Shown here in pieces: positions 8,759 through 11,222 of a stretch of 24,501 nt of DNA. The notes below the pieces were generated by a model, which ran no database searches, was not told where the DNA came from, and was given only the letters and a program-made list of their open reading frames with translations. Numbering within the stretch: the first letter of the stretch is position 1; each line of letters opens with the position of its first letter. Source of the DNA: a virus. Taxonomy: Duplodnaviria; Heunggongvirae; Uroviricota; Caudoviricetes. The DNA lies in IMG/VR virus record IMGVR_UViG_2700989161_000006, one strand, 5' to 3'. A program made the translations under genes and the position numbers.

Positions 8759-9127
8759 TCAGACGGCTTTGATAGTCATATCATCTGAATCAAATATTCC
8801 TGATGTATCGATATCGGTAATTCTTATTCCTTCGCTACCATCCATTGGAGGCCATCCTTCCTGACCATTTCCATCATTCCAGTCGAACTCACACACAACA
8901 CCATATGCATTTAAGTCGCTTGAAATTGCTATAAGCAGAGCATGTTGCGCCAGCATGATTAATACAGCATTTAATACAGAGCCGTGTTTATTGAGTCGGT
9001 GTTCAGAGTCTGACCAGAAATTATTAATCTGGTGAAGTTTTTCCTCTGTCATTACGTCATGGTCGATTTCAATTTCTATTGATGCTTTCCAGTCGTAATC
9101 AATGATGTATTTTTTGATGTTTGACAT
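8759..9127 (-). CDS. Hypothetical AT-rich protein (122 aa) with one long hydrophobic segment
   Basis: ATG at 9127 with GAGGA upstream; hydrophobic stretch VLNAVLIMLAQHALLIAISS; acidic C-terminus; intrinsic terminator 20-45 nt upstream. Confidence 0.55.
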   Translation of the reverse strand: MSNIKKYIIDYDWKASIEIEIDHDVMTEEKLHQINNFWSDSEHRLNKHGSVLNAVLIMLAQHALLIAISSDLNAYGVVCEFDWNDGNGQEGWPPMDGSEGIRITDIDTSGIFDSDDMTIKAV

Positions 9128-9145
9128 CTATTCATATCCTCATAG

Positions 9146-9173
9146 ATAAAAAATCGCCCTCACACTGGAGGGC
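9146..9173 (-). terminator. Intrinsic terminator (minus strand) just upstream of gene 8759..9127
   Basis: Minus strand gcccuc-cagugu-gagggc followed by GAUUUUUUAU. Confidence 0.5.
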
Positions 9174-9235
9174 AAAGAAGATTTCCAATAATCAGAACAA
9201 GTCGGCTCCTGTTTAGTTACGAGCGACATTGCTCC

Positions 9236-9263
9236 GTGTATTCACTCGTTGGAATGAATACAC
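9236..9263. repeat. Perfect 9-bp inverted repeat with 10-nt spacer
   Basis: gtgtattca (9236-9244) / tgaatacac (9255-9263); no flanking U-run on either strand, so a protein-binding site or RNA structure rather than a clear terminator. Confidence 0.5.
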
Positions 9264-9280
9264 AGAGCAGTGTTTATTCT

Positions 9281-9318
9281 GTTTTTTATGGCAAAAATAA
9301 AAGCTGCCATTAGGCAGC
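9281..9318 (-). terminator. Intrinsic terminator (minus strand) downstream of small acidic ORF
   Basis: gctgcc-atta-ggcagc hairpin (9303-9318) followed on the minus strand by UUUUAUUUUU. Confidence 0.5.
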
Positions 9319-9390
9319 CTTGTTGTTCTGTTTACCAAGTTCTCTGGAAATCATTGCCGTCGTTCGTATTGTCCACACCATTGATTTTTA

Positions 9391-9477
9391 TCAATAGTCG
9401 TAGTCATACGGATAGTCCTGGTATTGTTCCATCACATCCTGAGGATGCTCTTCGAACTCTTCAAATTCTTCTTCCAT
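9391..9477 (-). CDS. Candidate micro-ORF (28 aa, highly acidic, Tyr-rich)
   Basis: ATG at 9477 preceded by GAGGTG 6 nt upstream; MEEEFEEFEEHPQDVMEQYQDYPYDYDY; bracketed by two minus-strand terminators. Could be non-coding. Confidence 0.25.
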   Translation of the reverse strand: MEEEFEEFEEHPQDVMEQYQDYPYDYDY

Positions 9478-9587
9478 ATATCACCTCAAATAAGTGGTTT
9501 GCTGCCTAATTTCATTTTCTGGCGACCAACACAAGTCACACCCATTTCACTGCGTGGCTTGCGGTAGTAAATTAGGTTTGTTCAGAC

Positions 9588-9610
9588 AATAAAAAACCCA
9601 CCGAAGTGGG
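9588..9610 (-). terminator. Intrinsic terminator (minus strand) after gene 9611..9949 (tL1-like position)
   Basis: cccac-uucg-guggg immediately followed by UUUUUUAUU on the minus strand, starting 1 nt after the stop codon. Confidence 0.6.
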
Positions 9611-9949
9611 CTATGACCATTTTTTATTTGGATTTCGTTGGTGAGCGTGATTAACAACTCTGTGCATTACATCCTCATATTTTTCATCTTCAATTTTTTC
9701 GACATCGCGAGGAAATGGTGTTGCTAATGCTTTGTCAACTTTGTCCATTGGGTCTTCATTAATCTTATATTCAGGGCCATCATCTATAGCATTAAATCCA
9801 GGTGTTACACCGTTTTTTAATGCATATGCTATCCTTTTTTCCCATCTCGCTATTCTCCTCCTGTCTCGAGATGTAAGACCTCTATCAGATACTTTTCTGT
9901 TTTGTCCGCGGTCAGGATTAACATAAATAGTCTTTTTCACCATAAGCAT
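9611..9949 (-). CDS. Hypothetical basic protein (112 aa) immediately downstream of N
   Basis: ORF track 9611..9955 starts at TTG; first ATG at 9949, 2 nt after N stop. No family recognised. Confidence 0.45.
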   Translation of the reverse strand: MLMVKKTIYVNPDRGQNRKVSDRGLTSRDRRRIARWEKRIAYALKNGVTPGFNAIDDGPEYKINEDPMDKVDKALATPFPRDVEKIEDEKYEDVMHRVVNHAHQRNPNKKWS

Positions 9950-9951
9950 AC

Positions 9952-10257
9952 TCAATAAGCACCGTACGGTAGTTTACTGTACAATTTTATTTTTTGGACT
10001 GCATGTATTTTGTTTCCTAATGGGTTTGAATCTTTGTAATAAATACTTCTATTTTTTCGAACGACTTCTTCTTTCTTCTTGCAGCAAAGGCATCCTAGCG
10101 ATGCTGCTTTGTCTGCTCTGACGCAACCAGAGAGCTTTAGCGCAATTTTTCGCGCCAGTGCTTCATTACTGCGTCGCTCGGCAATAAGTTCTGCTCTGCG
10201 AGCTTTGTAGCGGCTTTTTGCCGTACCTTTGGATTCTTTCCAGACAATGGTTACCAT
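9952..10257 (-). CDS. N: N-type transcription antiterminator with phi21-like arginine-rich motif
   Basis: ATG at 10257 with AAGGAG 6 nt upstream; GTAKSRYKARRAELIAERR near the N-terminus matches the phi21 N boxB-binding peptide as I recall it; sits between pL/nutL and the terminator cluster. Confidence 0.7.
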   Translation of the reverse strand: MVTIVWKESKGTAKSRYKARRAELIAERRSNEALARKIALKLSGCVRADKAASLGCLCCKKKEEVVRKNRSIYYKDSNPLGNKIHAVQKIKLYSKLPYGAY

Positions 10258-10367
10258 GATGGTCTCCTTTAAGTGGCTTTGGCGCATGACGCGTCGAGGT
10301 GCTTATCTTCTCGATCGCTGTCTTGCAGCTGCAATTCGCGCCATCCCCAAAACCACTCAAGTTCTGG

Positions 10368-10407
10368 TCTCAACGGTTAGGTTGAGAGTCCGTCGATGTT
10401 AAAGAGC
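10368..10407 (-). promoter_or_regulatory. nutL (boxA + boxB)
   Basis: Minus strand: boxA GCTCTTTAACA (10407->10397), 9-nt spacer, boxB hairpin ucucaac-CUAACC-guugaga (10387->10368); same boxA and same loop as nutR. Confidence 0.55.
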
Positions 10408-10449
10408 CTGCCAATCTGTTCCGTTTGGCTTCCAGCGTCCTGCTGATGG

Positions 10450-10485
10450 CTTAAATTTAAGACTTCTTAATTTATTGGTCAAGTG
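10450..10485 (-). promoter_or_regulatory. pL promoter with OL operator
   Basis: Minus strand -35 TTGACC (10481->10476), 17-bp spacer, -10 TAAATT (10458->10453); overlapping 18-bp operator-like palindrome AATTTAAGACTTCTTAAT (10453-10470) similar to the OR operators. Confidence 0.4.
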
Positions 10486-10545
10486 TATTTTTGAAGAAAA
10501 CTTAATTTTATGGGCGTGAATTTAGTTTGTCTTTGATTTTTAACG

Positions 10546-10571
10546 GGAAATAAAAAAGGGGCGAAAGCCCC
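10546..10571 (-). terminator. Intrinsic terminator after the repressor gene (minus strand)
   Basis: ggggc-uuuc-gcccc directly after the c2 stop, followed by UUUUUUAUUU. Confidence 0.55.
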
Positions 10572-11222
10572 TTAAGGAAGGTTTGCTAGCTTGGCATCAA
10601 CGACAACGCCAATGATTTTACAGTTCCCATTGATTTCAATCATTGGGTATTGTGGATTGAGTGGTTTCAGGAATTTTCTACCGGCATCAATAACTAACTT
10701 TTTGAATGTCGCCTCGTTTTCTCCTTCAAGTTTGGCGACTACCAACTTTCCATTACGTGGTTCGACTTCTGGGTCGACGAGAATAATCATCCCCTCAGGA
10801 ATACTCAGTCCTGCCGGGGCAGTCATTGAATCGCCTTTAACGTCGAGCCAAAAAGAGTCTTCAGAACAATCTACCGTTGTGTCGTACCAGTTATCTATTG
10901 CACGCCTATGATATGGCTCTACAGCTTCCATCCAACATCCTGCGCTTACCCAACTAATTAGAGGATACGAACCTCTTGGATCATGCCTGCTGTGATAGGC
11001 AATGTTTGAAAGACTATCCTCTCCTTTCAACAGGTAATCAGGGGAGCACTGCAAAGCCTTGGCTAAGGCCAATAGGTTTTCGCCATTGGGCTCAGTTTCA
11101 GATCGCTCCCATTGGGAAATAGCAACATTAGACACGCCAACCATCTTGCCAAGGGCAGCCTGCCTAATCTTGAGTTCTTTTCTGCGAGCGCGAATACGCT
11201 CACCCATCAGTTGTGTATTCAT
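10572..11222 (-). CDS. c2: Phage repressor, P22 C2-like (LexA/S24 peptidase fold)
   Basis: 216-aa ORF; MNTQLMGERIRARRKELKIRQAALGKMVGVSNVAISQWERSETEPNGENLLALAKALQCSPDYLL... matches my memory of P22 C2 nearly residue for residue; N-terminal HTH plus C-terminal autocleavage domain (Ser in GDSM, Lys in KL). Confidence 0.9.
   Translation of the reverse strand: MNTQLMGERIRARRKELKIRQAALGKMVGVSNVAISQWERSETEPNGENLLALAKALQCSPDYLLKGEDSLSNIAYHSRHDPRGSYPLISWVSAGCWMEAVEPYHRRAIDNWYDTTVDCSEDSFWLDVKGDSMTAPAGLSIPEGMIILVDPEVEPRNGKLVVAKLEGENEATFKKLVIDAGRKFLKPLNPQYPMIEINGNCKIIGVVVDAKLANLP

Follow-up and report, generated by a model that had tools for sequence, protein, structure and literature searches.

Hfq-dependent small RNAs (sRNAs) such as CpxQ and SroC are processed out of the 3′ regions of longer mRNAs. 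In bacteriophage lambda, the spacer between ral and ea10 encodes an Hfq-dependent sRNA originally described as LPR1 and renamed PreS (Silverman et al., bioRxiv 10.1101/2024.10.31.621285; PMC12197685). This RNA is expressed in the lytic cycle only, as a species of ~88 nt accompanied by a processed form of ~68 nt, and its 3′ end is the terminator tL2a, for which there is experimental support in lambda (bioRxiv 10.1101/2024.10.31.621285). The PreS seed activates translation of dnaN and represses alaS (bioRxiv 10.1101/2024.10.31.621285; PMC12197685), and deletion of the seed or of the full sRNA reduces both phage DNA replication and spontaneous phage release (bioRxiv 10.1101/2024.10.31.621285). 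Upstream of PreS, lambda carries a cassette made up of orf28 (lambdap47) and ral (lambdap46; PF11058). Knock-down of orf28 gave no plaque phenotype, and for its function the searchable literature holds nothing beyond the description “hypothetical, non-essential” (PMC10695390).

Here the interval 9146–9610 of a 24,501-nt stretch of viral DNA, referred to below as the window, was compared with these systems. Very probably, the interval belongs to an imm21-type lambdoid prophage of E. coli and forms the N-distal portion of its early leftward (pL) operon; it is a mosaic joint of known lambdoid pL-operon modules, all on the minus strand. The presence in the window of proA and a tRNA-Thr(CGT) gene, with 99.4% identity to E. 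coli, identifies it as E. coli chromosome, and the lambdoid prophage adjoins thrW, which is its integration site in E. coli. In a megablast search against phage records, positions 9100–9500 aligned to lambda 33877–34381 in two pieces, and the stretch was resolved by alignment with lambda, phage 21 and PDP110P1, with ORFs and terminator-like sites read over 8700–10300. Conservation in relatives, proposed earlier as a check on the basis of the letters alone, was confirmed: homologous DNA was found in lambda, in phage 21 and in 2253 of 5426 complete E. coli genomes (~40%).

Upstream of the interval, the imm21 immunity region matches the annotated phage 21 record exactly at the cI terminator, OL/pL, boxA and boxB. 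The pL promoter, located by promoter scan and alignment at 10482–10454, boxA at 10407–10400 and the nutL boxB at 10387–10368 all lie on the minus strand and are identical to annotated phage 21. They are followed by a phage-21-type N gene at 9952–10287 (minus strand; phrog_271, E 9e-31), while ea10 (DUF2528) forms the downstream flank at 8759–9127 (minus strand; PF10800, E 1e-46; phrog_646; lambda annotation). As judged from sequence identity and published lambda work, the stretch is under pL/nutL/N control. The sequence-only reading had described it as a regulatory or small-RNA/micro-protein locus under N antitermination, not simple spacer DNA. This was borne out in part, as the DNA is not spacer, an imm21 pL and nutL lie upstream, and PreS and orf28 lie inside; however, the sRNA had been misplaced and two gene remnants between the terminators, an N 3′ fossil and a ral pseudogene, had been overlooked. 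Together this gene debris (9486–9581 and 9310–9407, respectively) accounts for ~190 bp of the interval. The contents of the stretch are already known, as lambda tL2a/PreS, orf28, ral and the nun terminator, and the only additions of the window itself are a deleted ral allele and a strengthened hairpin. In annotation the stretch deserves labels for PreS, orf28, the ral pseudogene and the N fragment instead of “intergenic”.

The sRNA lies at 9148–9234 (minus strand), between the ral remnant (9310–9407) and ea10 (8759–9127) within the pL operon. Its +1 (GAGCAATG...) and the deletion ends were set from primers P810, P969, P970 and P971 of the lambda study (bioRxiv 10.1101/2024.10.31.621285), and from this +1 to the U-run of tL2a the window is identical to lambda at 87/87 nt. 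The seed at 9183–9199 (minus strand; TGTTCTGATTATTGGAA) is unchanged, including the bases altered in M1 (CTG) and M2 (GAA), and the terminator tL2a (stem 9175–9154, 8 bp; U6 at 9153–9148; minus strand) forms within the PreS fold. The window copy thus shares with PreS of lambda the ral–ea10 position, the sequence, the seed and the GC-rich hairpin followed by U6, and the RNA shows no differences; the surroundings do differ from lambda, with an extra hairpin pair upstream and a deletion in ral. Given this identity, equal function is expected in this prophage, a transfer from lambda made by identity alone: the tL2a hairpin and U-tail would form the 3′ end and bind Hfq, and the seed would raise dnaN and lower alaS expression, aiding phage DNA replication. 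In Rfam searches at gathering and permissive thresholds, only tRNAs were recovered in the window; matches in the region were at chance level (E 1–5), and the PreS interval 9148–9234 had no family at gathering score. Automatic pipelines therefore miss PreS in ~40% of complete E. coli genomes, since it has no match in the Rfam copy searched.

Neither the scan nor inspection by eye revealed a sigma-70-like promoter upstream of PreS on the minus strand, and the origin of the PreS 5′ end is not discussed in the preprint (bioRxiv 10.1101/2024.10.31.621285). Immediately upstream, the perfect 9-bp inverted repeat pointed out in the sequence-only reading is present as GTGTATTCA/TGAATACAC at 9236–9244 and 9255–9263, and it turned out to be part of a larger RNA hairpin at 9231–9268 (minus strand) with 17 uninterrupted pairs, including two G.U pairs. 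On the pL-sense strand this hairpin has a predicted energy of -25.6 kcal/mol (z -10.2; 0 of 200 shuffles folded as well), compared with -19.0 kcal/mol for the antisense strand and -20.2 kcal/mol for the lambda version; the 6.6 kcal/mol advantage of the pL sense over the antisense is due to the two G.U pairs. At one position the window hairpin pairs U-A where the lambda version has A.A, which gives it one base pair more. Across 23 haplotypes, the stem shows no variation in its central ~14 bp, and differences are confined to the loop and the basal pairs. Folding of 9230–9330, which had been put forward as a check, thus did return strong hairpins, of 17 bp and 9 bp, but the sRNA itself sits at 9148–9234.

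The first 4 nt of PreS fall within the 3′ arm of the 17-bp hairpin, an arrangement suggestive of a processing site. Most likely, cleavage at the foot of the hairpin would free PreS from the N-antiterminated pL transcript: we infer release by cleavage because the +1 falls 4 nt inside the 3′ arm, and excision from the pL transcript because an upstream promoter was not found and the RNA is lytic-only in lambda. PreS would in this respect resemble CpxQ and SroC, with which it shares a terminator hairpin and U-tail as Hfq module, the lack of a detected promoter of its own and a shorter processed form; unlike them, it is located at an antiterminated terminator within an operon, and the 17-bp hairpin abuts its 5′ end. 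The hairpin might instead act as a 3′ stabiliser of the orf28–ral mRNA, as a pause or termination element, or as a protein-binding DNA palindrome, and not as a processing signal. Its location 3′ of ral, like that of mRNA-protecting hairpins, would fit the first of these roles, it is not followed by a U-tract, and its 9-bp core is a perfect DNA palindrome; however, the two G.U pairs and the 6.6 kcal/mol gain on the pL-sense RNA point to a role at the RNA level, and the position of the published PreS +1 4 nt inside the 3′ arm is hardly a coincidence. This set of alternatives is therefore considered rather unlikely, although well within reach, and the +1 position is compatible with a dual role in which the hairpin serves both as stabiliser and as the processing site favored here. 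That a conserved hairpin coincides with the 5′ end of a phage sRNA offers a testable lead on the biogenesis of this RNA.

The 28-aa acidic micro-ORF with a GAGGTG ribosome-binding site that had been spotted from the letters was found as such. It corresponds to orf28 of lambda and extends over 9391–9477 (minus strand), encoding MEEEFEEFEEHPQDVMEQYQDYPYDYDY, with a computed pI of 4.05 and a charge of about -12 at pH 7. At the nucleotide level it is identical to lambda J02459 34271–34357 (87/87 nt), and its product matches a PHROG family of its own, phrog_16060, over 28/28 positions (E 7.1e-19). The Shine-Dalgarno (SD) sequence GAGGTG at 9482–9487 (minus strand) lies 4 nt before the ATG and overlaps the stop of the fossil N. 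As in the lambda orf28–ral cassette, whose orf28 is identical, the last 17 nt of orf28 overlap the start of ral, including its ATG. The position of the cassette after N is common to the window, lambda and phage 21; in phage 21, 8 nt separate the N stop from the orf28 ATG that follows it.

Variation within orf28 was examined at two levels of divergence. A first scan of viral contigs returned only Ral loci with 100% identity and served for haplotypes, not divergence; in 84 close loci, the frequent orf28 polymorphisms were all at synonymous third positions. Divergence was sampled through Ral homologues and their contigs. In the scan of genome contigs for Ral, most matches were lambda DNA contamination in unrelated assemblies, and the informative ones came from Providencia, Kluyvera and Escherichia. 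Across loci from six genera, in which Ral is 61–79% identical, ral is preceded by an acidic ORF of 22–28 codons that has its own SD and ends 11–17 nt inside ral. The predicted products are of 28 aa in Escherichia (MEEEFEEFEEHPQDVMEQYQDYPYDYDY), Providencia (MEEDIEEFDEHPDDDMRQYQDYPYEYDY) and Proteus ((V)EDDIEEFDEHPDDDMSQYQDYPYEHDY), 26 aa in Pantoea (MDEEEFDEHPADDMSQYQDYPYEFDY), 22 aa in Erwinia (MEEFDQHPDDDMSQYQDYRYEY) and 23 aa in Kluyvera ((V)EDEFDEHPDDDMSRYQDYPYDH). The six genera share a motif, EF[DE]EHPxDDMxxYQDYPY, as well as the acidic character, and a SD-like GAGG or GGGG is kept upstream of all six divergent homologues. The pooled pN/pS of the six sequences was about 0.15 for codons 2–18, a segment that precedes the ral SD, and 0.11 in the overlap, with synonymous sites near saturation in this comparison. 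These values are good evidence that orf28 is a translated peptide under purifying selection, as far as can be judged from sequence comparison.

The arrangement of the cassette also suggests that orf28 would feed ribosomes to the ral start by translational coupling, since the stop/start overlap is conserved in the six genera. It is possible, if doubtful, that this is all orf28 does, i.e. that it is merely a leader ORF whose translation unmasks or feeds the ral start and whose peptide has no function. The conserved overlap would be explained in this way, and so would the Salmonella P22-like loci, which retain only a 13-codon version covering the ral SD and ATG (MNKYQDYPYGYDY), and one Citrobacter locus in which ral is joined through ATGA to an unrelated upstream gene of 66 aa; the knock-down without plaque phenotype (PMC10695390) is likewise in its favor. 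On the other hand, the low pN/pS is found at codons 2–18, before the ral SD is reached, where synonymous sites are near saturation, and both motif and acidity persist in six genera at a Ral identity of 61–79%. The ORF is furthermore open in four diverged ral-deleted alleles, an observation that weighs little given the few substitutions involved. The deviating Salmonella and Citrobacter loci indicate that the acidic peptide is not required for ral everywhere and that the universal feature would be the coupling of ral to some upstream ORF. Against this background, we tentatively propose, as one possibility, a two-part reading in which orf28 encodes a functional acidic micro-protein conserved with ral in Enterobacterales, acting as a partner or modulator of Ral against type I restriction or on another host target, and the 17-bp hairpin is a nuclease site that frees PreS. 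If the hairpin is such a site, PreS output would be coupled to the processing of the orf28–ral mRNA. Neither the conservation of orf28 with ral nor the hairpin at the PreS 5′ end appears to be covered in the searchable literature, and a 28-aa acidic peptide that is under purifying selection and, as predicted, invariably coupled in translation to an anti-restriction gene is in itself a testable lead.

Upstream of the orf28–ral cassette, the gene next to the interval is not N, as had been stated, but nun, encoding a Nun-like termination factor (9611–9955, minus strand; phrog_5632, E 4.8e-71, 112/112 full length). N and nun stand in tandem over 9611–10287 (minus strand), and the N–nun–terminator block is 98.7–99.2% identical to phages mEpX1 and mEp235, where the pair is annotated as N plus Nun; the likeness to these phages, whose Nun is of the HK022 type, extends over the whole block and includes a full-length Nun. 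HK022 carries nun in place of N, whereas the window has both N and nun, followed by a second, dead N 3′ end. Because the Nun-like gene directly follows N, the first “terminator downstream of N” is in fact the nun terminator (stem 9612–9595, 7 bp, -10.3 kcal/mol; U-run 9594–9589; minus strand; pattern scan and fold), and the nun stop TAG (9613–9611) sits at the foot of its stem.

All three minus-strand intrinsic terminators claimed for the interval were recovered by pattern scan and folding, each as a GC-rich stem-loop with a U-run behind it on the transcribed strand. The remaining two are tL2a and a hairpin after ral (stem 9321–9300, 9 bp, -14.5 kcal/mol; feature 9290–9321, followed by UUUUAUUUUU; minus strand). 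The three belong to three separate mosaic modules, namely the nun cassette, the allele-specific post-ral hairpin and tL2a. The post-ral hairpin has energies of -14.5 kcal/mol in the window, -15.2 kcal/mol in PDP110P1 and -4.3 kcal/mol in lambda, where it is no better than shuffled sequences, so that lambda lacks the strong hairpin carried by the window. The window form is a unique haplotype among 23, and the variants keep pairing through G.U, A-U and G-C changes. Upon induction, RNA polymerase would start at pL, become N-modified at nutL and pass all three terminators, a read-through inferred from the identity of pL and nutL and the established biology of lambda and phage 21. The read-through transcript would carry orf28, to be translated from its GAGGTG site. 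In the absence of N, transcription arriving from upstream would halt at the nun terminator, and the downstream genes would be insulated.

Between the nun terminator and orf28 lies the fossil 3′ end of a phage-21-type N (9486–9581, minus strand), which reads ...LIYYRKPRSEMGVTCVGRQKMKLGSKPLI* with the stop TGA at 9488–9486. This remnant of ~95 nt was recognised by alignment and by translating both the window and phage 21 N; with LIYYRKPRSEMGVTCVGRQKMKLGSKPLI* being the C-terminal end of phage 21 N, the fossil represents a second, dead copy of the N 3′ end. The fossil contains one copy of the 9-mer reported in opposite orientation in two hairpins. The match exists and is in fact a 10-mer, with ATTAGGCAGC at 9309–9318 and GCTGCCTAAT at 9501–9510, but the second copy lies outside any hairpin and the match is at chance level. 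The 9-mer TTAGGCAGC corresponds to the K-L-G-S codons of the N fossil, 17% of dinucleotide shuffles of the region yield a perfect inverted 10-mer pair, and in other haplotypes the shared match is only 7 nt. A functional pairing of the two copies was rejected on account of this chance rate, the fossil coding location and the lack of conservation.

It would be conceivable that the three terminators, the inverted repeat and the 9-mers together form one attenuator/anti-terminator switch controlling read-through into ea10 and beyond, and the density of terminator-like sites in 8000–11000 is indeed above chance (11 found by pattern scan against 2.4 ± 1.6 in shuffles). The 10 nt at 9501–9510 are perfectly complementary to the 5′ half of the 9300–9321 stem, and, in the window only, a duplex of -24.5 kcal/mol is predicted between the PreS seed and the ral 3′ remnant (p about 0.002 compared with shuffles). 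However, the elements belong to separate mosaic modules that differ in their distribution, lambda has no middle hairpin, the 10-mer has the fossil N location, shuffle frequency and 7-nt match elsewhere given above, and the seed–ral duplex is not significant in lambda (p 0.22). A coordinated switch of this kind is therefore regarded as very improbable. Sequestration of the PreS seed by the ral 3′ end in the precursor, with the same p values of 0.002 in the window and 0.22 in lambda, was not adopted because the duplex depends on a window-specific SNP.

The ral gene itself is a pseudogene (9310–9407, minus strand; ATG 9407–9405), 103 bp shorter than lambda ral and frameshifted, and the gap is visible in the alignment to both lambda and phage 21. 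The deletion breakpoints are GGACAAT|TCAAG and GGGCAAT|ACGAA, leaving the junction CAAT at 9368–9371. The original frame stops after 18 codons (MTTTIDKNQWCGQYERRQ*), short of an intact PF11058 frame of ~66 aa, and the 20 C-terminal Ral codons are out of frame; they are fused to an out-of-frame ATG in a new ORF of 23 codons at 9310–9381. The old ral stop, now TAA at 9312–9310, lies in the loop of the 9300–9321 hairpin. With ral non-functional in this prophage, the anti-restriction output of the cassette is lost, while orf28 and PreS stay intact.

Judging from the dead ral and the fossil N, the prophage may have decayed in part. It is nevertheless improbable that all of the stretch is prophage DNA in decay, without present function and with its hairpins and ORF as leftovers. 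The frameshifting 103-bp deletion in ral and the ~95 nt of dead N fragment would fit decay, and the prophage sits in the chromosome without sign of inducibility; yet PreS and orf28 are base-for-base equal to functional lambda, pL, nutL, N, nun, cI and cro are all intact, and homologous DNA is present in 2253 of the 5426 complete E. coli genomes. The ral-deleted allele has also persisted and diversified: 22 of 5426 complete E. coli genomes carry the identical deletion junction, which was seen in none of the phage records, and these 22 genomes have differing neighbourhoods and 93–98% mutual identity. In genomes with the deleted-ral allele, PGAP calls only Ral remnants of 14 or 23 aa.

The 103-bp deletion in the anti-restriction gene ral creates a new 23-codon ORF (MVWTIRTTAMISRELGKQNNKAA; window 9310-9381, minus strand), in which an out-of-frame ATG is joined to the Ral C-terminus. 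Only 9 nt separate this downstream ATG from the stop codon of orf28, the 28-aa acidic micro-ORF that overlaps the ral start, so that reinitiation at the 23-codon ORF after translation of orf28 is conceivable. Among 5426 complete E. coli genomes, 22 carry the deletion allele, which has diversified. PGAP labels such remnants "antirestriction Ral family protein" where they are 23 aa long and "hypothetical" where they are 14 aa long.

A second, independent instance of a broken ral with its leader ORF intact is provided by Kluyvera genomosp. 1 (L107 1198-1394), where the ral homologue is also frameshifted, near a WAIRTTAM motif, and the orf28-like ORF upstream stays open. In a Citrobacter contig (L112 604-804), orf28 is replaced by an unrelated 66-aa gene that is coupled to ral via an ATGA overlap. 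The Ral start appears always to lie within an upstream ORF or at its end. Database matches with 100% identity to lambda ral were also present in species-representative assemblies of unrelated taxa, including Pseudoxanthomonas, Nocardioides, Shewanella, Paenibacillus, Bradyrhizobium and Vibrio, among others (L085-L100, L103, L105, L106 and L108). The contigs concerned had low coverage and were either short or about 48.5 kb in size, and these matches look like contamination by lambda control DNA.

The ral 3' remnant (9316-9352, minus strand) is complementary to the seed region (9183-9207) of PreS, the Hfq-dependent sRNA also known from lambda. The predicted duplex has an energy of -24.5 kcal/mol (p about 0.002 against shuffled sequences) and is aided by a SNP specific to the window that places GAUUUCC opposite GGAAAUC; the same complementarity between the PreS seed and the ral 3' region was tested in lambda and was not significant there. 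In some relatives, the body of PreS is retained and its 3' end is swapped for another, as shown for L111, in which PreS nt 1-68 are 100% identical (526-593) and the sequence diverges beyond, and for PDP110P1, in which nt 1-79 are retained (L003 1209-1287) with a different tail. This pattern places a mosaic breakpoint within the PreS terminator or immediately past it.

Elsewhere in the prophage, a phage-21-type N antiterminator and a full-length Nun-like termination/exclusion factor are arranged in tandem with overlapping ends (9611-10287, minus strand). Phages mEpX1 and mEp235 have the same N-nun block as an annotated feature, and it is present without such annotation in Kapi1, PA28 and Stx1a phages. 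The rightward part contains a pair of adjacent tRNA genes that are phage-borne, Asn-GTT and Thr-TGT (17663-17818, plus strand). The integration point adjoins the host tRNA-Thr(CGT) gene thrW, which is located downstream of proBA, and next to it is an ORF of integrase size (window 2727-2802 and 2817-3977).
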